Part shown: positions 2,958 to 44,398 of the stretch, in pieces
How positions within the stretch are numbered: the stretch's first letter is position 1
How the letters are laid out: the number at the start of each line of letters is the position of its first letter
Assembly: GCA_016194335.1 (NCBI GenBank)
Contig: JACQBR010000012.1
Location: 5,448 to 69,447, forward strand
Length of the DNA stretch: 64,000 nucleotides
Source: Candidatus Micrarchaeota archaeon
Lineage (GTDB): Archaea; Micrarchaeota; Micrarchaeia; Norongarragalinales; UBA97
Direction: 5' to 3'
Program-made: the position numbers and the translations under genes
The notes under the pieces: generated by a model
The model's database searches: none
What the model saw: the letters and a program-made list of their open reading frames with translations, nothing else
Told to the model about the DNA's origin: nothing

Positions 2958-3470
2958 TCACCTCACCAGGGCGAGGCGCGCGAGGTAGACGATGCAAAGC
3001 AGTAGAAGCCCCAGGCCGAAGTGGCGCGCGCTTGCGGAAAAGCCGCGGGAAAGCGCGGTGGGATCGCCACGGTAGTCTTCGAAAGACGCCTTGCTCAATT
3101 CGCTTGCAGCGAGGAAGGCGAAAATCTGGGGGAAGAAAAAGAGGTAGTCGAAAGGATGGACTGCAAACGCGGCGAACGAGGCGTATTTCGCGCCTTCCAG
3201 CACGCCAGCCGCCACCGAGCCCAGCCCGAAAAACAACAGCCCGGCGACGAAGGTGAAGGCATAGGCGGTAACCACGCTGGCAATGTCCGCCACGAAAGGC
3301 CCGCTGGGCCCCGTTGCGAAAAGCTGGTAGTGGTAGAACGGCGAGAACACGGGCAGCACCACGCCCACCGCCGGAAGCGCGACGTAAGCCGCGATGGTGG
3401 CGAAGAAACACGCCACGCCAAGGTAGAACGACCAGCCAGCCACGGAAATCCCCCAACTTCTCTTGTCCAT
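2958..3470 (-). CDS. polytopic membrane protein
   Basis: Start chosen at ATG 3470 (MDKRSWGISVAGWSFYLGV...), with cttatttatcc about 25 nt upstream. The track ORF extends to 3581. Confidence 0.55.
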   Translation of the reverse strand: MDKRSWGISVAGWSFYLGVACFFATIAAYVALPAVGVVLPVFSPFYHYQLFATGPSGPFVADIASVVTAYAFTFVAGLLFFGLGSVAAGVLEGAKYASFAAFAVHPFDYLFFFPQIFAFLAASELSKASFEDYRGDPTALSRGFSASARHFGLGLLLLCIVYLARLALVR

Positions 3471-3611
3471 CTGAAGCGCTCGAAGGGATAAATAAGTATG
3501 CGAAGGTGGGCAAATGCGCTGAAAAAGGCGAATGGGGGAAGGGGGGAACGGTCCACGGGCTCCGTGATGAAACCCAGCCAAACAAACATGAATATATAAC
3601 TATACAAAGGG

Positions 3612-3623
3612 ATAGATATCTAT
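3612..3623. promoter_or_regulatory. perfect 12-bp palindrome atagatatctat, candidate operator/TATA for the vapBC pair
   Basis: Read directly. It sits just upstream of the antitoxin start codons (3628/3649) in an AT-rich divergent intergenic region. Confidence 0.35.
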
Positions 3624-3627
3624 ATAG

Positions 3628-3897
3628 GTGATGGGAATGGGTAACGTTATGGTGTCCTTGGATGAAAGGCACGAGTTGCTCCTAAGGACGATGGCGCGGG
3701 AAGTGAACGGCGGGAAGAAAGGCTCGTTAAGCAAGGTGATCGAGGCGGGCATTGATGAGCTTGCGAAAAGGGGGAAGCGCATAAGGGCGGCAAAAAGCCA
3801 GATTGCCATGATGAAAAAGGGCTTCAACTTGGGCCTTGGGGACAGGAAGATTTACGAAACGAGGGGCGAGCTTTACGACCGGCCGCATTCTCATTGA
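3628..3897 (+). CDS. type II antitoxin (ribbon-helix-helix/VapB-like)
   Basis: Small ORF overlapping the PIN gene. The N-terminal beta-strand-like MVSLDERHELLLRTMAREV suggests the true start may be ATG 3649. Confidence 0.6.
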   Translation: MMGMGNVMVSLDERHELLLRTMAREVNGGKKGSLSKVIEAGIDELAKRGKRIRAAKSQIAMMKKGFNLGLGDRKIYETRGELYDRPHSH

Positions 3898-4297
3898 CAC
3901 AAACGTGCTTGCATACGCATACGAAAACACCAGCCCCAAGCACGCGGCGGCGGCAAATGCCCTGGAAAAGGCGATTGAGGAAGGGACGGGCGTGCTTAGC
4001 GTGCAGAACCTCGCGGAGTTCTGCAGCTTCGCAACCGAAAAACTCCAGCTTAGAATTCCCCACGACCAAGTCAGGACGATAGTGCTTGAGCTTTCCGAAA
4101 GCATGGAAGTGGCGACTTACGACTCCCGGACGGTTGCCAGCGCGCTAAGCCTCTCAAGCATCCACAAAATCCATTTCTTCGACGCGCTGTTGGCGGCGAC
4201 GATGGAGAAGGAAGGCATCAGCGAGATAATGACGGAAAACGAGAGGGACTTCCGCAAAATCCCGTGGCTCACCGTAACCAACCCGTTCAAAAAATAG
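3836..4297 (+). CDS. vapC: PIN-domain ribonuclease toxin VapC
   Basis: ILIDTNVL near the N-terminus, FFDALLAATM and TENERDF acidic motifs. TTG start overlaps the antitoxin. Confidence 0.8.
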   Translation: MGTGRFTKRGASFTTGRILIDTNVLAYAYENTSPKHAAAANALEKAIEEGTGVLSVQNLAEFCSFATEKLQLRIPHDQVRTIVLELSESMEVATYDSRTVASALSLSSIHKIHFFDALLAATMEKEGISEIMTENERDFRKIPWLTVTNPFKK

Positions 4298-4322
4298 GCC
4301 TGCAGGCCCTCCCGAGGCGGAT

Positions 4323-4637
4323 TCAGATATTATAGTACTGCAAGTGCGGCACGCCGCCTATTTTTTTCGCGTCGGAGAGCTTGACCGAAATCACCTTGCC
4401 CGCCGCGGCAATGGCCTTCCCTCCCACGAGGTTGACGCTGTCCACGCCCTCAAGCATTTCCCCCAGCCTCTTTGCGCTCACGCGCTCGCCCTTGTAGAAC
4501 GGCGCGTAAGCCTTGAGGTCAAGCACCAGCCCCCCGCTTGAATAGGCCTTGCCAAGCAGTTCGGAATCGCACGCGGCGACTACCGTCCGGGTGACGCCCT
4601 GCAGCGTGCGCGTGTGGACCTTGGCGACAATGGGCAT
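4323..4637 (-). CDS. DUF424 family protein (conserved archaeal)
   Basis: VAACDSELLGK...YKGE...NLVGGKAIAAA...GGVPH pattern typical of DUF424. From memory. Confidence 0.75.
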   Translation of the reverse strand: MPIVAKVHTRTLQGVTRTVVAACDSELLGKAYSSGGLVLDLKAYAPFYKGERVSAKRLGEMLEGVDSVNLVGGKAIAAAGKVISVKLSDAKKIGGVPHLQYYNI

Positions 4638-4760
4638 GAAACTCCAAGAGCTTAGGGAGGGCGATTATTTAAACGGAATGCGGGCAGGACACCCCCCGGC
4701 AAAGCTCTGCCCAACGATGTTATTAAAAGCCGCGGCGGCAATATTTGGGTTGATTAGATA

Positions 4761-6983
4761 ATGGCACCTTATCAGAGCAGGAGAAAAATCGAATTGATTC
4801 CCGGAATCAATCCGAAAGATCTGGGAAACTATGCCGATGCTTACAACCGCGCAGGATTCTTTAAGCGCCGCCAAGTTAATGATCTTATTCGAAACGCCTC
4901 GGCGCACGGCTCAACCCCCGCGGAAATGGCTAAGGCGCTAGGTAAAGCAGGGCCTAAAGCGATTGCCCCAATTAATATAATCGGCTCTGATGCCGTGACA
5001 GCTTACGCCAAACTGGGGGAAAGAGCACTCAAACTCGTGCATGCAACGGGGGACAACTACAATGCCGCAGCTTTGGCAAAATATGGCGAGCGCGCTGCGC
5101 GCCCGATGGAAATGGCGAGCAACAACGGCAAGAACAAGGAGGCAGTGGAGAATGCGGCTGTAGTCATTCTCAACCACGACGTGAAGGGAATCAAGGCCTT
5201 GGAATCCCACCACGATTCGCTCAAACTCATTCTGCAGCACGGAGGGGCGCACGAGCCCGACATCGTGGAAATCCTCTCGAGCATGGGCAGGCCGGGCTTT
5301 ATGGCCTTGCGCAATCACGGCGTGGAGGCAATCGACCCGCTTTTGAGGCTTCGCACGCCAGCGGCGGAAGTTCTTTCAAAAACCGGCGGGCACCGCCTCG
5401 ACGCCATCAGGCAGGGGGGGATGCAGGCAATCAATTTCGGGAACGAGTTGGGCGAAGACGCGTTCCACATTGTAGCCGACCACGGCAGGGGCGTTATCAA
5501 CCTCATCAAGAGGCTCAAGCCCGATGCGCAGGCGGACGCGGTGAAGGCGGCGCACTCCCACGGGGAGGACTTTCTTGCGCTTCTCAACAGGCACATCCGC
5601 TCGGGGTATGGCGAGCACGTTGCAAAGGCAGTGGCAAGCGACGGGCAGGCTGCCATCAACCACATCACTTCATTTGGCAGGGAGGCGGCAAAGGCAATTG
5701 CCGAAAACCCCCAGCGCGGCAGGGAGCTTCTGGACTTGTACGGCGAGGACGCGGCCCTTCCGATGGACAGGTTCGGCCCCGACGCCGGGGAATTCATTTT
5801 TGAAAAAGGGAGGCCCGCGGGAACGGTGCTCCGCCACGTGATGGCATTCGAGCCTGACGAGAGGATGGCTAGAAGAACCGCGGCTGACGTGATCAAACGC
5901 GTGCGCGGCGCACGCGGCGACGAGATTCTCCACCTTCTCAACACGCCAACCGCGCAGGAAAGCAAGGCCGTGCTCGATGCGATTCGCACTCACAAGGACA
6001 AGGCAATAGACTTCATGCTCGACCAGGGAACTTCAGCCGCCGCCGTGCTGCTCCACCCGCGCGCGAGGGAAATGATCCCGCTGATGAGGGAGCATTCCAA
6101 CGCGGCTGATGCGTTCAGCCGGTTCACGCATGACAACGGCCTGCTCAGCGACGCCTTGGACATTGCGAAAAAATTCGGCTCGCGGAGCCTTGAAGTCTTG
6201 GCCAACCACGAGGTTCACGGCCTCAACGCGATTAAGAACCACGGGATGGACGCGCTGGGCTTGATTGAGCGTTTTCATAATATTGCACTCCCTTACGGCC
6301 GTGCCGTTGCCCAAACGATTTCCGAACGCGGCCAAGAGGGAATCGACTTCATCAACGCGCACGGCGAAGGGGGCGTGAGGCTGCTCTCAATGCACGGCTT
6401 TGAGCGGGCAAAGGAATTGATTGAAGAGCAGAGGCGGCAGGAAGAGGAGAGAAGACGGCAGGAGGAAGAGAGGCGGAGGCAGGCGGAAGATAGAAGGCGC
6501 TCTGCGGAGGAAGGCGCGAGGGAACGGGCTGAGCGAAGGCAACGCGCCGCGGAGGAAGATAAGAGAAGAAGGCAGGCGCGGCGCGGATACGCCGAAGAGC
6601 AAGAACAGGAGAGGTATACTCCAGACAATTTCAGAGGCCCCGTCAATGCTACCGAGCGGAAGATTCACGAGCAGTGGCTGGAGAACGCAGACCAACTTCG
6701 CCAGTTGGGCCTTCACATCATGCTTGGCCGCAGCGAGGCCGGCCCACGAAACGCAGTAACCACAATTGCCGACGGCATCTACTTCACCAAGATACACTCG
6801 CCCGAAGAGCTCAAGTTCCTTAGGACAGCCGTGAGAAAGGCGATGGTAGTATACCACCCCGACAGGCTTGAAAATGCCGAAAGGTTTGGGCCCGACGGGA
6901 AAAAGGAGGGGCAGAAACTCGCTACATACGTCTTCAAGAGGTTGAACGAGGTTTTCACCCGCCTAAAGAACGAGGGTTACTGA
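4761..6983 (+). CDS. repeat protein with charged coiled coil and C-terminal J-domain (HPD motif)
   Basis: C-terminus LRTAVRKAMVVYHPDRLEN...ATYVFKRLNEVFTRL fits J-domain helix II, HPD and helix III. It is preceded by EEQRRQEEERRRQEEERRRQAEDRRR and by many HG-x2-A-(I/L/F)-x2-(L/I) repeats. Confidence 0.7.
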   Translation: MAPYQSRRKIELIPGINPKDLGNYADAYNRAGFFKRRQVNDLIRNASAHGSTPAEMAKALGKAGPKAIAPINIIGSDAVTAYAKLGERALKLVHATGDNYNAAALAKYGERAARPMEMASNNGKNKEAVENAAVVILNHDVKGIKALESHHDSLKLILQHGGAHEPDIVEILSSMGRPGFMALRNHGVEAIDPLLRLRTPAAEVLSKTGGHRLDAIRQGGMQAINFGNELGEDAFHIVADHGRGVINLIKRLKPDAQADAVKAAHSHGEDFLALLNRHIRSGYGEHVAKAVASDGQAAINHITSFGREAAKAIAENPQRGRELLDLYGEDAALPMDRFGPDAGEFIFEKGRPAGTVLRHVMAFEPDERMARRTAADVIKRVRGARGDEILHLLNTPTAQESKAVLDAIRTHKDKAIDFMLDQGTSAAAVLLHPRAREMIPLMREHSNAADAFSRFTHDNGLLSDALDIAKKFGSRSLEVLANHEVHGLNAIKNHGMDALGLIERFHNIALPYGRAVAQTISERGQEGIDFINAHGEGGVRLLSMHGFERAKELIEEQRRQEEERRRQEEERRRQAEDRRRSAEEGARERAERRQRAAEEDKRRRQARRGYAEEQEQERYTPDNFRGPVNATERKIHEQWLENADQLRQLGLHIMLGRSEAGPRNAVTTIADGIYFTKIHSPEELKFLRTAVRKAMVVYHPDRLENAERFGPDGKKEGQKLATYVFKRLNEVFTRLKNEGY

Positions 6984-25389: not shown

Positions 25390-26076
25390 ATGCAGAACTC
25401 CCCAAGGCAAATCTTTCCCGGCGTTTTCCTCATCCGGGGCCGCATTGCCACGGCCAGCCTCGCGCCGGGCTTCCGCGTCTATAACGAGGACACGGAAAAA
25501 ATCGGCGGCGTGCAATACCGCCTGTGGAACGCGCGGAAAAGCAAGCTGGGCGCGGCCATCGTCAAGGGGCTCAAAAACCTCCCGATAACCCCCGGGGGGA
25601 GCGTGCTTTACATCGGGGCGGCAAGCGGCACCACCGCGTCCCACGTGAGCGACATCGTGACCGGGGAGGGGGTGGTTTTCTGCGTCGAGTTCGCCCCCCG
25701 CGCCGTGCGCGACCTCGTGAAGGTGTGCGAAAGGCGGGAGAACATGCTTCCCATTCCCGAAGACGCCAGGACGCCTGAAAACTACGCCGATGTCGTTGCG
25801 GAAGAGGCGCCGGACGGGGTTGACGCGGTTTTCCAGGACGTGGCCGACCCCGAACAGGTGCGCATCCTCAAAATCAACTGCGAACGCTTTCTCAAGAAAG
25901 GCGGCACCGCCCTCCTCGCTCTCAAGGCGCGAAGCATAAGCGGAACGGGCGACCCGCAGGAGATTTACGCCCGCGTGCTAAGGGAAGTGCAAACGGATTT
26001 TGAGGTGGTGCAGCGCATCGACCTGGCGCCCTACGACATCGACCACATGTTCCTCGCGCTGAGGAAAAAAAGCTGA
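25390..26076 (+). CDS. flpA: fibrillarin (box C/D rRNA/tRNA 2'-O-methyltransferase)
   Basis: YRLWNARKSKLGAAI, VLYIGAASGTTASHVSDIV (SAM motif) and DVADPEQVRIL. Confidence 0.95.
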   Translation: MQNSPRQIFPGVFLIRGRIATASLAPGFRVYNEDTEKIGGVQYRLWNARKSKLGAAIVKGLKNLPITPGGSVLYIGAASGTTASHVSDIVTGEGVVFCVEFAPRAVRDLVKVCERRENMLPIPEDARTPENYADVVAEEAPDGVDAVFQDVADPEQVRILKINCERFLKKGGTALLALKARSISGTGDPQEIYARVLREVQTDFEVVQRIDLAPYDIDHMFLALRKKS

Positions 26077-35933: not shown

Positions 35934-38723
35934 TCAATGCGCCGCCGCGGTGATGGTCAGCACGCCGGAATACGCCCCCGCCCTCACGCCCGAGTCCATC
36001 GCGATGATGAAATACTGCGTGGCGTTGCTCGTGGCGCCCGACGCGCTTGGGCCGAGGTTGTAGGTGGTGTTGAATGCCGAAGTGGAGTTTGGCACTTGCC
36101 GGTAGTCGCTGCCGGTTCCCAGCGTGGAGAAGCTGTACCACTGGTTGGATGCGTTGATGTCGGCAAGGCCGGACGAGGTGAGGTTGGTCGACTCGAACTT
36201 CGCGTCGAGGGCGACGTTGCCGAAGTTCGTCACGTTCACCGCCTGCGCCGACGAATTGCTCCCCGGGTCTATCGAACCGTAGTTGATTGAGGAAGGCGAG
36301 GCGGAAAGGGCGAGGAGGGAATTGACAACGGCGTTTGACGTGTAGTTTGAAAACGCCCCGCTCGCGTCAGTGGCGTTAACGGCGCACCAGGCCAGCCCCG
36401 CGGTAAAGTAATACGGAAGGGCGAAGGAACAGTTTGCAGTGACGTTATTGCCCGACGCCCCCTGAAGGGAGCAGGAAGAGTTCAGCAAATTCATCCCGAC
36501 CACCCCGGTCCCGAGGTTGAGAGTCACGTTCTGCAGGAATGCGCTGTAGTTGCTCCCTCCGCTTGAGTTGAGCGACGCGCGGTACTGCACGAGCTTGCCC
36601 ACCACGTTGGAAACCGAGGCGTTCCCGCCGTAATACTCCGAAGTGAACGCCGACCAGTTGCCTTCCTGCCCCGTTGAGTTCGTCGGATTGCCCGCGTTGT
36701 AAAGCGCGGTAATCTCGCTTGCAGAGAGCGTGCGGTTCCAAATCTTTATGTCGTCGATGGAACCGTTGAATCTCTCGTTTGACGTGGCAGCATCGCCGCC
36801 GATGTAAACAGGAATCGTGAGCGAAGGGGTAGTGCACATGGCGGCCAATGCGCCAACTACTGGGGCGTTACCGTCAAAATAGAAGGTTATGGTTGAAGCT
36901 GAAAGACTGCCGTTTATTGCAACCGCGAGATGATGCCAAACGTTTGCCGATGGCGAAATGCTGGAACTGACAGATTGAATACCGCAAACCGAATTGGATG
37001 TGTAATAGACTAACGTGCCGGTATCCAAGCGAATCAGGGAAACCAGATTCCCGCCAGCTACACTCAAGTAAACCGCGTAAAGTGGCTGAAGCCCTGAAGA
37101 TGGATTGGATGGATTGAACCACGTGGAAATCGTTAAGTTTGTTTGCAACCCTTCCAGTGAGCCGGGGGTCCCTAAATTTACCAAGCCGCCAGTCCCGTCC
37201 AACTTCAGGCAATTCCCAACGGCGCAAGTCGTTGTGTTTAGAGTAACGCCGCCGACGAGTGCGCCGGTTATCCCATTCCCGCTCAAATCAAGCGTCTTGT
37301 TCGTCACGCTCTCGTTGCTTGACGAATCGCCCAAATCCCACCACCCCACGAGGCCAGAGTCGTTGAACGAATAGTTCTTCGCGCGGAACGCGAGGGAAAC
37401 GTTCGTGAAATTGTTGATGAAACCGCCATTGCCCTTGCCGGTGGAGTTGTATTCCCAAGAGTAAAGCTGGTTCACCTCGCTTGCCGAGAGGGAACGGTTG
37501 AAAATGTGCACTTCGTCAATCAAGCCGTTGAAGAACTGTGCTGTTCCGGGATTATTTCCCGCCCCGACAACTATTCCTTCGGTACTGTAGGAGAGTTTGA
37601 GGGTTGTCGTCAGGTTGAGTGCCCCGTCTATGTATAGCTTGGCGTTGTTTGAAGGCGCGGCGGCATCAATATTGGAAAAAGTGAGTCCCACAAAATGCCA
37701 ATCCCCATTGGCCAGATTTATGCCAGTTGACCGGTCTGCGCTATTTCCCCAATCATAAATTCCAAACAAATTACTGTTCAGAAACATCCCATAAGCTCCT
37801 TGCTTTACCACTATCCCCCGATAAGATGTGCCTGCGTTCGTAGTCTTAATCCATGCAAAAACGCTTCCGGTATTGATGTTTGTCGATGTTACCGGAGGTT
37901 CCGGCAAAGCAACATTGTCATCCCCGCCGTCAAACGTCAGGCACCCGCCCACCTGGCATCTGGAAGTCCACATCGCGCCAGTATTGTTGTTCACCACCGC
38001 CCCCGAATTGTTAAACCTGCTCGCGTCCTTCGTGTCATTCTCGAAATGAAGGTCGAGCACGACCGTGTCGTTGCCCAAGCCGTTGGCATCCTTGGTGAGC
38101 CCGGCGGACTCGAACCAGCTCCAATTCGCCTGCATGAGTGATTGGTTGGCGTTCGAGCGGTTCATCACCACGATTTGCGAGAAATACTGCCCCACGCCCG
38201 AGAAGGAATTGTTATTCGGAAAGAAGCCTGTAAAGACGCTTGCCGAGTCATTCAAATAAGTGCCGTTGAAACTCCCAAGCGAAAAGTTGCTCACGCCAAA
38301 GTGGCTGTAGGAAAAGTTGGGGACTGAATTGAGGAAGTAGAAAATGCCGTTGGCGCTTGAAACGTCCGCGGCGGTGTTGATGTCGGTCACGTTGGCGTAG
38401 CAGAAGACCGTCGTGTTGGAAGGCCCGGGGGAGAGGGTGATTGAGGATGGCGATACTGAAACGACGCCCATCGTGGGCGGGTTGTTCACGATGCCCGCGG
38501 AGGTAGTGGCGGAAGTGACCAGGCCGGTGAGGAGGGAAGGGGGATTTGACGCGGGGGAAATGCCCAACGCAGGAAAGCTGATTTTCAGCGCGGGGGAGGA
38601 GAGCAGCACGAGGAGGAACACGCAGAGGGTTAGCACAAGGGCGGCGGGGGTTGCCAAGGAATTCCCATCTTTAGCCACGGGCGGTCTCTTCTCCATCCAA
38701 ATGTGCTTCAAGCTGAAGGTCAT
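35934..38723 (-). CDS. second LamG-domain surface glycoprotein (paralog of 31451..34126)
   Basis: Same module grammar and long conserved blocks with the paralog. Start chosen at ATG 38723, about 25-30 nt downstream of tttaaatt. ATG 38696 or the track start 38798 are alternatives. Confidence 0.8.
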   Translation of the reverse strand: MTFSLKHIWMEKRPPVAKDGNSLATPAALVLTLCVFLLVLLSSPALKISFPALGISPASNPPSLLTGLVTSATTSAGIVNNPPTMGVVSVSPSSITLSPGPSNTTVFCYANVTDINTAADVSSANGIFYFLNSVPNFSYSHFGVSNFSLGSFNGTYLNDSASVFTGFFPNNNSFSGVGQYFSQIVVMNRSNANQSLMQANWSWFESAGLTKDANGLGNDTVVLDLHFENDTKDASRFNNSGAVVNNNTGAMWTSRCQVGGCLTFDGGDDNVALPEPPVTSTNINTGSVFAWIKTTNAGTSYRGIVVKQGAYGMFLNSNLFGIYDWGNSADRSTGINLANGDWHFVGLTFSNIDAAAPSNNAKLYIDGALNLTTTLKLSYSTEGIVVGAGNNPGTAQFFNGLIDEVHIFNRSLSASEVNQLYSWEYNSTGKGNGGFINNFTNVSLAFRAKNYSFNDSGLVGWWDLGDSSSNESVTNKTLDLSGNGITGALVGGVTLNTTTCAVGNCLKLDGTGGLVNLGTPGSLEGLQTNLTISTWFNPSNPSSGLQPLYAVYLSVAGGNLVSLIRLDTGTLVYYTSNSVCGIQSVSSSISPSANVWHHLAVAINGSLSASTITFYFDGNAPVVGALAAMCTTPSLTIPVYIGGDAATSNERFNGSIDDIKIWNRTLSASEITALYNAGNPTNSTGQEGNWSAFTSEYYGGNASVSNVVGKLVQYRASLNSSGGSNYSAFLQNVTLNLGTGVVGMNLLNSSCSLQGASGNNVTANCSFALPYYFTAGLAWCAVNATDASGAFSNYTSNAVVNSLLALSASPSSINYGSIDPGSNSSAQAVNVTNFGNVALDAKFESTNLTSSGLADINASNQWYSFSTLGTGSDYRQVPNSTSAFNTTYNLGPSASGATSNATQYFIIAMDSGVRAGAYSGVLTITAAAH

Positions 38724-38892
38724 ACTAATCACTTTAAGGGCGAATTTAAAGCCATCGCGGGGGCAGAGCTGGCAAGCAGCCTGAGTGCGCGGGGGCATTT
38801 ACTGATGAACTGGAGTTTGGGGAAGCGTTTGGACGCGCAAGCATCAGGAAAAAAAAATGGCGGGAAATTTCCCTCCCGGGTTTCCAGCCTGC

Positions 38893-40032: not shown

Positions 40033-40074
40033 AATTGCCTACCGGACTTAGAAAGGGAAAGCAGGCTTTAATTA

Positions 40075-40257
40075 TAGCGGATTGCAAAAGTAATGCCAAT
40101 GCCGCATTGCAATCCGCTAGTTGCAAACCAAGATAATAGCGGATTGCATAAATAATGAAACATTGCCAGCAATCCGCTAGTTGCAAATCGCACTTCTAAA
40201 GTTCCAGAATTAATGCGATTTGCTATAAGATTGCCGCAAGACTTTCTTGGTTTGCTA
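40075..40257. mobile_element. MITE-like structured element, copy L (123-nt core plus a 60-nt internal partial duplication), flanked by TA/TA
   Basis: Apart from the 60-nt insert at 40128-40187, it is identical to the reverse complement of 44262-44384. TA dinucleotides lie at 40073-74 and 40258-59. Contains a 13-bp stem (tagcggattgcaa/ttgcaatccgcta) and an 8-bp stem (aaatcgca/tgcgattt). Confidence 0.6.
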
Positions 40258-40327
40258 TAGTTTGCAAAAAGAGGCGGCGGGGGAATAGACTTCACTCAAT
40301 TTGCCAGGGCCTTTCCCAACTGCGGGT

Positions 40328-40975
40328 TTACCCAATGGAGGCAACCGCGTTTTGGTCGCCTTCGAAATCGATGAGCAGGTTATTGTTGACAAGCGCACGA
40401 AGGGCGGGCGAATCGTAGGGTTCTACACGCGTGAGCATCTGCCGGATTGCATTGTTGGCCCTTGCTTTCGACGCTTCAACGGCGTCCTTGACACGCGCGC
40501 CTTTGAGGAGCCGGTACGCCACTGCATTGGAAGCTTCAAGCACTGGCTTGGCGGACGGATCCCTAAGCGGCGTGGCCGCAAACTCGTTGACGCGCGGAAT
40601 CCAGAAGTCGCCCCTGTAGCCAACCACGGCCTTGGCGCCTTTCTTCACAGCCGACCTGCCTATTCCGTTGAGGCAGCCGCATGCGCGGATGAACGAAACC
40701 GTGCCTTGCAAAAGCCCTGCGTTGGAAGAGTCAATCACCACTTCGTCCTTATGGCCGCACACTTCGTCTTCCGAACCGTGGCCGTTGAATACCGCCAACT
40801 GTGGCCCGTTAGACAACCGCGCAGTGACGTTATTGCGGCAGTCATCCCCGCCATCTGCTTTCTCCACTCTCCAGTTCCGGCGCTCTGCCTCGTCAATGAT
40901 AGCTTGAGAATACGCGAACAAATAGCTGTTGCCTATGTCATGGCCGCTTCGGGCAATAAAGAGTTTCCGGCTCAT
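40328..40975 (-). CDS. minimal caspase/CHAT-like (clan CD-like) protein
   Basis: LAVFNGHGSED (strand-His-Gly) followed about 33 residues later by VSFIRACGC (strand-Ala-Cys), then KKGAKAVVGY as in CHAT domains. Last gene of a 3-gene overlapping operon. Confidence 0.5.
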   Translation of the reverse strand: MSRKLFIARSGHDIGNSYLFAYSQAIIDEAERRNWRVEKADGGDDCRNNVTARLSNGPQLAVFNGHGSEDEVCGHKDEVVIDSSNAGLLQGTVSFIRACGCLNGIGRSAVKKGAKAVVGYRGDFWIPRVNEFAATPLRDPSAKPVLEASNAVAYRLLKGARVKDAVEASKARANNAIRQMLTRVEPYDSPALRALVNNNLLIDFEGDQNAVASIG

Positions 40976-41193
40976 AAGCTCAACTTGCGTGAAAGCTTGG
41001 GCATTTCCCGGAGGAAATTCAGCTCCATTTCAATGGCGGCCTTGCCCACGTTGCTCCCGCCCATAACTTCCCGAATCAACTGCTCTTTGGTAAAATCGCC
41101 GAAACGGCCTATGGAAAAGCTGGAATTGGGGGGCATTGACTGCAACCTGGTCACTACGAGCTTCATCAAGTAATCGTCATCCATAAAGGTCAC
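40972..41193 (-). CDS. small protein of unknown function (cassette gene 2)
   Basis: 73 aa with 4-nt overlaps to both neighbours. Weak similarity to cassette gene 1. Confidence 0.55.
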   Translation of the reverse strand: MTFMDDDYLMKLVVTRLQSMPPNSSFSIGRFGDFTKEQLIREVMGGSNVGKAAIEMELNFLREMPKLSRKLSL

Positions 41194-41402
41194 TTCCCTT
41201 CGTCAACTGAAAGCAGGCCCAACTCATCCAGGTGCCGGAGAATCGAATCGCCGGTCTCGGTCCGTCCCTGAATCTCCAGAAAAGCGCTGTTCCAGTTGAA
41301 CGGCCGCTCATCAACCAGAACCACTATCTCCTCGCGCAGTTTCGCCGGAACTGCGGCGTAGGTCCTTACAAACATGGAACGCAGCAACTCAAGGTCCGGC
41401 AT
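41190..41402 (-). CDS. small protein of unknown function (cassette gene 1)
   Basis: 70 aa, first gene of the overlapping operon. Confidence 0.55.
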   Translation of the reverse strand: MPDLELLRSMFVRTYAAVPAKLREEIVVLVDERPFNWNSAFLEIQGRTETGDSILRHLDELGLLSVDEGK

Positions 41403-41458
41403 ATCCGTTCACCTTCAAATCCCTACAATGAAGACACAAACATATAGAAAACGACATT

Positions 41459-41500
41459 GGCTTTAATTAGTTTGCAAAAATAGGCGGGGGGAGAATAAAC
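41459..41500. repeat. 42-bp terminator/promoter module, intact copy (empty-site equivalent of the MITE-L insertion locus)
   Basis: ggctttaattagtttgcaaaaataggcggggggagaataaac matches 40064-40074 joined to 40260-40290 at 38 of 42 positions (hand alignment). On the minus strand it reads as a C-rich tract plus a T5 tract, then taattaaag. Confidence 0.6.
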
Positions 41501-41506
41501 GGGTTC

Positions 41507-42517
41507 TTACGCCTTGCCCTTACCCCGCCTGATTTCCGCCAACCTTTCCTCAAGCTGTTCCTTCAGGAGGGGCGCGATGAAGTTGCCCGTGAAGCAGTCG
41601 GCCTTGGCGGCAATTGCGAGCTTGCCCGCGAGTGCGCGCGCGATTCTCCCCCTCTGGTCTTTCGGGGCGCTGCGCAGCAGGGGCGACTGGAAAATCAGGC
41701 CGTGCTTGGGCGGCGGCGAGCGACCGTGCGTTCGCAGGTGCTTGAAAAGCGACTTCTCAGCCCCGATGACCTGGATGGTTGACGAGGGCATTTCGGCAAG
41801 CTTTTCCAAACTCCCCGCGGCTGAAAGCAGGCGCGCCGCGACGAGGGCGTCGGAGAGGTGAGCGACGTTCTTGAGGACGGCGTCCGCCTCGGCCCCGACG
41901 AACTTCTCAAGCTGCCTGCGCGACTCTCCCAGCGCAATCACCGCGTGGGAAAGGTCGCGAAGCGCGTTGGCCTGCTGGATGGTGAGGGGAGAGCCGAAGC
42001 TTTCATTTGCGCGCGAAGCGAGAGTGGTTGCCTTTGCCTCTCCGGCGATTTCGGAGAGCTTCCCGAAATCGATTGACTCGCGGCTTCCGAAGTTGGAGAC
42101 TATTTTGGCGTAAGTCTCCTCGCTCTCGATTGAGAATTCGGGGAAGTTGATCTTGAACCACTCGTCCATGCGGGTGAAGAGCAGACTCTTGGCGGAGTCA
42201 AGGTCGTCAATCGCGCGGATTGCCTGGATGAGGCTCGCGCCCTTGCCAGTGTAGGCCTCGCGCACCATTTCCTTCGCCTTTTTGAGAAGGAACAGCCTGT
42301 GGCCGACTTTCCGTCGGTCCCTCGACTGAATAGAGGCCTGGTTCACCGCCTCGCGAGGCTGGCCTCCTCCAGGCCGGGGGGAAAAGCCTGACGGCCTGCC
42401 TGAAGCGCTCCCGCCGGGCCTGCCGCCGAAACGCCTCGGGCCGCCGGGGCGGGAACTTGGGCCGCCCTTGCCCGGACCGCCGAAACGGCTTGAGGGGTGG
42501 AAATTCCTGTTTTTCAA
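41507..42517 (-). CDS. nop5: Nop5 (Nop56/58) box C/D snoRNP protein, with an RGG/P-rich N-terminus in place of the usual N-terminal domain
   Basis: NOSIC/Nop core: RMDEWFKINFPEF, ...IQVIGAEKSLFKHLRTHGRSPPPKHGLIFQSPLL..., RGRIARALAGKLAIAAKAD. The first ~65 aa are RFGGPGKGGPSSRPGGPRRFGGRPGG... Confidence 0.85.
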   Translation of the reverse strand: MKNRNFHPSSRFGGPGKGGPSSRPGGPRRFGGRPGGSASGRPSGFSPRPGGGQPREAVNQASIQSRDRRKVGHRLFLLKKAKEMVREAYTGKGASLIQAIRAIDDLDSAKSLLFTRMDEWFKINFPEFSIESEETYAKIVSNFGSRESIDFGKLSEIAGEAKATTLASRANESFGSPLTIQQANALRDLSHAVIALGESRRQLEKFVGAEADAVLKNVAHLSDALVAARLLSAAGSLEKLAEMPSSTIQVIGAEKSLFKHLRTHGRSPPPKHGLIFQSPLLRSAPKDQRGRIARALAGKLAIAAKADCFTGNFIAPLLKEQLEERLAEIRRGKGKA

Positions 42518-44198: not shown

Positions 44199-44261
44199 CC
44201 CTTTTTGGGAGGGGGGAGAATGGGCCGCCAGCTGATACCGGATGCAATCCTGCGGTAATTA

Positions 44262-44384
44262 TAGCAAACCAAGAAAGTCTTGCGGCAATCTTATAGCAAA
44301 TCGCATTAATTCTGGAACTTTAGAAGTGCGATTTGCAACTAGCGGATTGCAATGCGGCATTGGCATTACTTTTGCAATCCGCTA
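44262..44384. mobile_element. MITE-like structured element, copy R (123 nt), flanked by TA/TA
   Basis: Exact reverse complement of copy L minus its 60-nt insert. TA at 44260-61 and 44385-86. It ends 14 nt before the ATG at 44399. Confidence 0.6.
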
Positions 44385-44398
44385 TAACCGGTGAATCC

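Follow-up and report, generated by a model that had tools for sequence, protein, structure and literature searches.

The stretch of 64,000 nucleotides (nt) from a Candidatus Micrarchaeota archaeon, called the window in the following, harbors on its minus strand a cassette of three genes, A, B, and C (positions 40328 to 41402). The trio is a fixed, mobile three-gene unit that contains a real, undescribed family of clan-CD proteases, protein C, together with two small partner proteins, and its function is one that we infer from the data assembled below. A full-text search of the literature found no paper describing the C family or the trio. New are the invariant Asp139 of C, the three-way co-occurrence across the phylum, the hotspot of variable gene content that follows nop5, the recurrent flanking duplications that differ from locus to locus, and the interruption of the repeat in the window by an element resembling a miniature inverted-repeat transposable element (MITE).

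Gene A (41190 to 41402, minus strand) is the first gene of the operon, starts with ATG, and encodes 70 amino acids (aa). Gene B (40972 to 41193, minus strand) starts with GTG and encodes 73 aa, or 70 aa from an alternative in-frame ATG three codons in. Gene C (40328 to 40975, minus strand) starts with ATG, and its product of 215 aa is a candidate for a stand-alone, minimal cysteine protease of the caspase/gingipain/CHAT fold. The open reading frame (ORF) listing of the window showed chained, overlapping frames for all three, and the coordinates and lengths were those of the original prediction, which had also described both junctions as 4-nt overlaps of the ATGA type. This is literally so for the B/C junction (40975 to 40972, stop of B with start of C), whereas the A/B junction (41193 to 41190, stop of A with start of B) is a GTGA overlap. 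A, B, and C are genuine genes and not chance ORFs because conserved homologs of each, with the gene order retained, occur in dozens of further genomes. The overlapping or abutting frames point to co-translation and to a complex of A, B, and C with a fixed stoichiometry.

Protein C as a candidate minimal clan-CD protease

The three sequence motifs of C on which the original prediction had been based were all present. LAVFNGHGSED contains His66, VSFIRACGC contains Cys99, located 33 residues further on, and KKGAKAVVGY comprises residues 111 to 120. His66 (codon CAC, 40778 to 40780, minus strand) in NGHG directly follows the strand of residues 60 to 64 and is the putative catalytic His, and Cys99 (codon TGC, 40679 to 40681, minus strand) in R-A-C directly follows the strand of residues 93 to 97 and is the putative catalytic Cys. 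This is the order of clan CD, with His-Gly after a hydrophobic strand and a Cys preceded by Ala or Gln after the next one; in the C family, the invariant Cys is preceded by Ala or Ser.

An AlphaFold2 model of C, calculated with an alignment of 17 sequences, reached a pLDDT of 94.1 and a pTM of 0.91, and its elements were arranged in the order b1-a1-b2-a2-b3-(H66)-hairpin-a3-b4-(C99)-a4-b5-loop-three helices-b6. When this model was compared with the PDB by Foldseek, the best match was SAVED-CHAT (8tl0, E 3.8e-7) and gingipain R (1cvr/4ief) was found with an E value of 1.4e-5 and a TMq of about 0.6, followed by legumain (6l4y), Kgp (4rbm), the CHAT protease of Craspase (8d9h/7x8a), separase (5fc2/5u1t), and a C11 peptidase (6mzo). 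The TMq values of the top clan-CD matches were between 0.44 and 0.62. Matches in a viral structure library included a caspase-domain protein of Megaviridae and a clostripain of Tupanvirus. According to this model, C has the clan-CD (caspase-hemoglobinase) fold, an alpha/beta/alpha sandwich whose central sheet is mainly parallel, with a conserved putative His/Cys dyad, as had been predicted from the two motifs after consecutive hydrophobic strands, and with about 215 aa it is indeed close to the minimum size for this fold.

A word-indexed search yielded 17 close homologs of C with 49% to 66% identity, for which a Micrarchaeia metagenome-assembled genome was the sole named source. A search for loci with the C alignment of the close homologs led to two named genomes, both from Micrarchaeota. 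When 1.84 billion cluster representatives (clusters at 50% identity) were searched exhaustively with phmmer, 600 proteins matched with E ≤ 1e-3 and 269 with E ≤ 1e-10. Since nearly all of these matches were 195 to 245 aa long, the family is a large one and, judging from these lengths, uniformly single-domain. One candidate relative, P0101 (1,078 aa, seven stretches), was rejected as a low-complexity repeat protein. P0132, a family member of 245 aa from a metagenome, possesses an additional hydrophobic tail at its C terminus (…IPPIIMGGLALLILFGR), so that this variant of the mini protease may be anchored in the membrane.

Invariant in the 17 close homologs were N64-G65-H66-G67, F95, R97, C99, Y120, P136-L137-x-D139, S149-N150, and E185-P186-Y187. 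In 59 diverse members with 25% to 66% identity, His66, Cys99, Gly119, and Asp139 were still invariant, and this conservation supports a catalytic role. Asp139 (codon GAT, 40559 to 40561, minus strand) belongs to the conserved P-L-x-D motif, which is positioned in the model in the loop after the strand of residues 116 to 120. In caspases and legumain, the loop after b5 forms part of the S1 pocket. Asp139 is thus a candidate for the S1 specificity residue, and a preference of C for a basic P1 residue is a reasonable inference from its location in this loop.

The only Pfam family in contact with C was Peptidase_C25 (PF01364, gingipain, clan CD), which covered residues 27 to 103 including His66 and Cys99 with 18.3 bits and an E value of 0.0014, below the Pfam cut-off of 23 bits for this family. 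Just 4 of the 59 diverse members matched Peptidase_C25 (E ≤ 0.1). The CHAT profile (PF12770) was matched by a single one of the 59 (E 0.061) and not by C of the window. Caspase/metacaspase C14 (PF00656) was neither among the matches of C of the window nor among the 25 Pfam families listed (out of a total of 30) for the 59 diverse members, and no curated threshold in Pfam, NCBIfam, PADLOC, or PHROGs was reached by A, B, or C. The clan-CD fold matches combined with the unreached profile thresholds indicate that C represents a new clan-CD family of minimal size, which by profile criteria is not C25, CHAT, or C14.

It is highly improbable that C is not a protease but uses its His and Cys for another chemistry or for structural purposes on a generic flavodoxin-like alpha/beta fold. 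Flavodoxin-like oxidoreductases did appear lower in the Foldseek list (E about 4e-3 and weaker, TMq 0.3 to 0.43), one C homolog is annotated as "FMN-binding" at its source, and sequence-only as well as profile searches of the PDB with C returned nothing meaningful. Nevertheless, the matches with E < 1e-3 were mostly clan-CD peptidases with higher TM scores (0.5 to 0.62), the exceptions being four chains of glutamate-receptor amino-terminal domains with a low TMq of about 0.28. Moreover, the sole recurrent Pfam match, Peptidase_C25, spans both His66 and Cys99, and His-Gly and Ala-Cys after consecutive hydrophobic strands, the signature of clan CD, are invariant over all 59 sequences.

Linkage, distribution, and neighborhoods of the trio

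Two small ORFs of 61 to 83 aa were located upstream of C on each long contig examined. At 34 distinct C loci, B was adjacent to C in every case and A in 32 cases as judged by hidden Markov models (HMMs); at one further C locus, a divergent A was recognized by eye. When 401 genomes of the phylum were scanned with the three profiles, 33 contained C, 36 contained B, and 34 contained A, and the matches were in the same genomes with abutting coordinates in the order A, B, C. Owing to this adjacency at the C loci and to the shared genomes across the phylum, A and B are obligate partners of C, and the three genes form the fixed unit that had been proposed from the window. Intact A and B (about 65 to 75 aa, cytoplasmic) were found solely directly upstream of C, with decayed remnants as the exceptions.

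The trio is present in about 8% of the genomes of the phylum and in 24 of 155 genera, and it is absent from all three genomes of the same family. Hits to A, B, or C in the phylum that lacked their counterparts were fragments or remnants (G196, G092, G311:C62, G108, and G319). Genome G319 (locus L060, G319:C31) carries an intact B-like gene at 1919 to 2158 without a recognizable A or C, and G108 (L059, G108:C1) carries a fragment of A alone at about 2491 to 2625; these two solitary cases look like decayed remnants of the cassette.

Outside the archaea, the trio was found on clearly bacterial contigs, in one case beside genes for DNA polymerase III delta', YbaB, RecR, RF-1, S6, SSB, and L31, in another beside RecG and a PBP1 transglycosylase/transpeptidase, and all three family HMMs scored strongly at the bacterial loci. 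The trio is spread across domains, with the family being concentrated in DPANN archaea and small-genome bacteria. A viral or plasmid origin of the trio was considered and rejected, with no match in INPHARED, PLSDB, or IMG/VR. The trio is accessory, mobile, and decaying in some genomes.

Elsewhere, the neighbors of the trio are all different and are often related to conflict. They include a DNA methylase with HNH, Vsr, PemK, an SLFN-like helicase, DUF3800, AAA_14/DUF4143, PDDEXK, Bro-N, an rve integrase, Fic, and CopG. No gene beyond the trio was conserved across the examined loci.

This distribution also bears on an accessory role outside of biological conflict, in which C, with A and B as adaptors, would be a processing or transpeptidase/ligase enzyme for a host-interaction or cell-surface protein of ultra-small symbionts. 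Legumain and GPI8 are clan-CD enzymes of the processing or transpeptidase/ligase kind, and legumain-type ligases were among the fold neighbors of C. The concentration of the family in DPANN archaea and small-genome bacteria and the position of some loci amid metabolic or translation genes agree with such a role. Nevertheless, we consider it quite unlikely: the trio occurs in about 8% of the phylum genomes while close relatives are without it, pseudogenized copies are common, and a conserved substrate gene was not found nearby. Furthermore, neither signal peptides nor membrane segments were found in A, B, or C, except for the C-terminal hydrophobic tail of one C variant of 245 aa.

The small proteins A and B

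Orthologs of A (n = 32) and B (n = 34) were taken from 40-odd loci and used for HMMs and alignments. F11, P19, and W37 were invariant in A, and Y15, R23, P34, A40, E43, and I54 were nearly so; in B, R16 and G50 were invariant and P21 and G29 nearly invariant. Both proteins are conserved along their whole length, as in folded domains. Library, sequence, and profile searches gave no significant family match and no significant PDB sequence match for either of them.

The AlphaFold2 model of B (pLDDT 90) contains a helix (residues 6 to 18), a beta-hairpin (25 to 35), a second helix (36 to 45), and a long helix (48 to 72). It has no structural neighbor in the PDB according to Foldseek; the best E value was 0.72, so that prefoldin beta was rejected as the fold of B because a match at this level is not meaningful.

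The original prediction had also noted a weak alignment between the two small proteins. A profile-profile alignment with hhalign recovered the same register over 50 columns, pairing P19 of A with P21 of B and G51 of A with G50 of B, but it is statistically insecure (probability 2.9%, P = 0.015), and the HMMs of A and B did not cross-match. A paralogy of A and B is possible but unproven.

One explanation for two small proteins beside a protease is a regulatory switch of the ImmR/ImmA, CapH/CapP, or DdrO/IrrE type. One of the two small proteins would be a DNA-binding repressor or anti-regulator that C would cleave upon a stress or infection signal, and this would alter transcription of the cassette or of adjacent island genes. 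B shows a weak, recurring likeness to the alpha2-alpha3 region of the OmpR/ArlR winged-helix domain: Trans_reg_C of Pfam matched 4 of the 34 B members (best E 0.0035), and the top three PDB sequence matches of B were ArlR DNA-binding domains (E about 1). In addition, a hydrophobic pattern similar to that of sigma region 4 was seen by eye in A, and the cassette adjoins variable defense or toxin-antitoxin (TA) genes. However, none of these sequence similarities is significant, the helix-hairpin-helix-helix model of B has no helix-turn-helix or winged-helix neighbor in the PDB, and many A orthologs are acidic. A fixed regulated target is also missing because no gene outside the trio is conserved at the examined loci. 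We regard this explanation as fairly unlikely.

Alternatively, A and/or B may be precursors or cargo from which C, by cutting at a conserved basic residue, may release the active product, for instance, a small toxin, signal, or structural protein. This would agree with the strict linkage of two small proteins with a protease, with the conserved Arg in each of them (R16 in all 34 aligned members of B, R23 in 31 of 32 of A), and with the invariant Asp139 of C, which could select a basic P1 residue. Such a maturation module is unlikely, nonetheless, when the conservation of A and B is considered, which is that of full-length folded domains and not the pattern of a leader plus a variable core. R16 of B resides within a confidently predicted helix, one bacterial ortholog has Asn in its place, and no transporter, modification enzyme, or signal peptide was found in or near the cassette.

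Insertion site and flanking repeats

In the window, the cassette is bracketed by a 44-nt direct repeat with 80% identity between its two copies. The upstream copy (41457 to 41500) starts 6 nt past the stop codon of nop5 and contains an oligo-T run and a TATA-like box, TAATTAAAG, about 60 nt upstream of the ATG of gene A. The downstream copy (40247 to 40290) starts 37 nt past the stop codon of C and is interrupted on its purP side by a MITE-like insertion. When 40073 to 40260 were removed in silico, the repeat grew to about 57 nt with roughly 84% identity. The 20-nt core of the repeat has exactly two occurrences in the whole 1.18-Mb assembly, and it was therefore rejected as a general regulatory motif. 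The ancestral spacer between nop5 and purP, with a terminator and a promoter, appears to have been duplicated upon insertion, so that one copy would now precede the cassette and the other purP, each possibly serving as promoter.

A scan of 31 distinct loci revealed comparable flanking repeats at five loci besides the window, in five other genomes (L015, L017, L020, L032, and L034; in L017, for example, at 964 to 986 and 2142 to 2164). These repeats were 20 to 60 nt long, each with its own sequence, and their scores of 15 to 54 have to be compared with a maximum of 13 or less after shuffling. The downstream copy began 2 to 40 nt past the stop codon of C at four of these five loci. The insertion hallmarks that had been noted for the cassette are thus genuine, as indicated by the genome-unique repeat here and the comparable repeats at the five further loci. 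Because locus-specific repeats flank the cassette, the trio behaves like an insertable unit of about 1.2 kb without its own recombinase, and the repeats suggest a duplication of the target by an insertion mechanism that requires no recombinase encoded by the cassette.

The nested, hairpin-rich MITE-like element (40072 to 40262) is situated outside the cassette, between the cassette and purP, and has 46 matches in the genome. Its core of about 95 nt (about 40134 to 40229) occurs in at least 30 copies with 95% to 100% identity scattered over the 1.18-Mb genome, and this core is inserted into an outer element of about 100 nt with about six further copies. The DNA fold z-score of the element was −6.8. 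A near-perfect inverted copy of the composite element is found 4 kb away at 44257 to 44387, and the pair therefore brackets the cassette, nop5, and glyS. The MITE-like element marks the nop5-purP spacer as an insertion hotspot.

The neighbors of the cassette in the window are housekeeping genes, with Nop5 (PF01798) encoded upstream, a PurP-type DUF1246/DUF1297 protein downstream, and a divergent glycyl-tRNA synthetase beyond nop5. The cassette region has a G+C content of 0.53 to 0.58 without a clear deviation from the window, and no Rfam match was found between 39800 and 41700. The adjacency of glyS and nop5 is retained in the relatives G115 and G337, where the examined flank extends that far. 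Downstream of nop5, G115 (L050, G115:C14:63000-71000; 3241 to 4924) carries an unknown gene of 174 aa and a GmrSD_N-like gene, and G306 (L051, G306:C26; 1339 to 2818) carries a PIN toxin gene with dCMP/dCTP deaminase genes behind it. In relatives of the same family, this site is thus a variable hotspot. The original prediction would have been contradicted if the trio were a conserved housekeeping neighbor of nop5. This possibility was checked and rejected, as no nop5 was located at the other examined loci and the relatives carry other genes at this site, so that the trio is an accessory cassette.

Some further features of this region were recorded. The N terminus of Nop5 of the window (41507 to 42517) is formed by about 65 residues of low complexity that are rich in Gly, Pro, and Arg, and the Pfam Nop domain begins only at residue 103; in the relatives, the frames across nop5 are open for 450 to 610 aa. 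A fibrillarin gene (PF01269, 252 bits) resides at about 25405 to 26061 of the window (G000:C8:30852-31508), about 15 kb from nop5 and not directly downstream of it, which means that the usual archaeal nop5-flpA pairing is broken here. The gene at 35934 to 38798 encodes a protein of 954 aa that contains two Laminin_G_3 (concanavalin-like) domains and a large number of N-x-S/T sequons; this protein is probably a glycoprotein of the cell surface.

Possible function of the cassette

To understand the biological meaning of these data, we propose, tentatively and as a possibility that comes close to being probable, that A-B-C may be a self-contained, horizontally mobile conflict module of ultra-small prokaryotes that works as a proteolytic switch of the TA-like or defense type. 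The products of A, B, and C would form one complex in which C would be the effector protease, probably cutting after Arg or Lys owing to Asp139. A and/or B would keep C inactive as pseudo-substrate or adaptor, or alternatively would be trigger substrates that are cleaved, and loss or displacement of a partner would release proteolysis by C. Like a TA module, the trio is a compact operon with overlapping frames and a patchy, mobile distribution, being present in 33 of 401 genomes, in varied contexts, and with flanking repeats. Its small-small-large order is reminiscent of operons for a regulator, an antitoxin, and a toxin, for instance, omega-epsilon-zeta.

Several observations weigh against a conflict module. 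PADLOC-DB 2.0 HMMs (E ≤ 1) and PHROG models had no match to A, B, or C, and relatives of the trio were found neither among the phages of INPHARED and the plasmids of PLSDB nor in IMG/VR. Several loci, especially the bacterial ones, are located amid housekeeping genes and not in defense islands. B has no recognizable DNA-binding or antitoxin fold, the charge contrast between an acidic antitoxin and a basic toxin was not seen across the family, and a protease is an unusual toxin for a classical TA system.

A farther-reaching version of the conflict module is possible but rather doubtful. Here, two mini-proteins of a new fold would control a bare clan-CD protease of 215 aa in trans, making the trio an undescribed proteolytic conflict switch present in two domains and the smallest self-contained caspase-fold system known, carried by a cassette of about 1.2 kb without a recombinase that duplicates 20 to 60 nt of its target. 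In eukaryotes, proteases of the caspase fold have a central part in regulated cell death and in immunity, and they are increasingly found in bacterial defense, as in Craspase, SAVED-CHAT, and the activation of gasdermins. The C family reduces this fold to a bare domain of about 215 residues that is paired with two dedicated mini-proteins. If the trio is indeed such a switch, it would provide a minimal, tractable model for the restraint and release of a clan-CD protease and would give DPANN archaea and bacteria resembling those of the candidate phyla radiation, whose gene repertoires are very small, a further conflict module that is widespread and unannotated. The recurrent flanking duplications, in addition, point to an uncharacterized insertion route for tiny gene cassettes.

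Comparison with known systems

The gingipains RgpB and Kgp (MEROPS C25; 1cvr, 4ief, and 4rbm) share the alpha/beta fold with C (Foldseek E 1.4e-5 to 4e-4, TMq 0.57 to 0.62), and C25 is the sole Pfam family touching C (residues 27 to 103). The spacing of 33 residues between His and Cys in C is that of His211 and Cys244 in RgpB. In contrast to the gingipains, C scores 18.3 bits and thus below the C25 cut-off of 23, with 4 of 59 members matching; it is about half as large as the catalytic domain of gingipains, is without prodomain, Ig-like domain, and secretion signal, and is cytoplasmic and encoded beside two small partners.

Separase with securin and the caspases/metacaspases (C50 and C14) have the clan-CD fold in common with C, as seen with separase (5fc2 and 5u1t). 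A small partner that blocks the active site until its removal may be a further common principle, which is hypothetical for the action of A and B on C. These enzymes are, however, large, multidomain, and, in the case of separase, eukaryotic, and C has no Pfam match to C14 or C50.

The best structural matches of C were CHAT proteases (E 3.8e-7 to 8e-4), namely SAVED-CHAT (8tl0) and TPR-CHAT/Csx29 of Craspase (8d9h and 7x8a). CHAT caspase-fold proteases act in conflict systems and cleave dedicated small partners, for instance, Csx30 in Craspase. C differs from them by having no sensor domain such as SAVED or TPR and no CRISPR or CBASS (cyclic-oligonucleotide-based antiphage signaling system) genes nearby, and Pfam CHAT matches 1 of the 59 members with an E value of 0.061. 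As far as family searches tell, A and B are unrelated to Csx30, Csx31, and RpoE; nevertheless, in combining a caspase-fold protease with small proteins dedicated to it, the trio recalls Craspase with Csx30/31.

The tripartite TA operons omega-epsilon-zeta and paaR2-paaA2-parE2 contain no component related to the trio in sequence or fold, and the presumed toxin of the trio would be a protease and not a kinase or gyrase poison. Nevertheless, these operons share with the trio the small-small-large gene order and the overlapping frames, and like the trio they are patchy and mobile, are located beside other TA or defense genes, and frequently have decaying copies.

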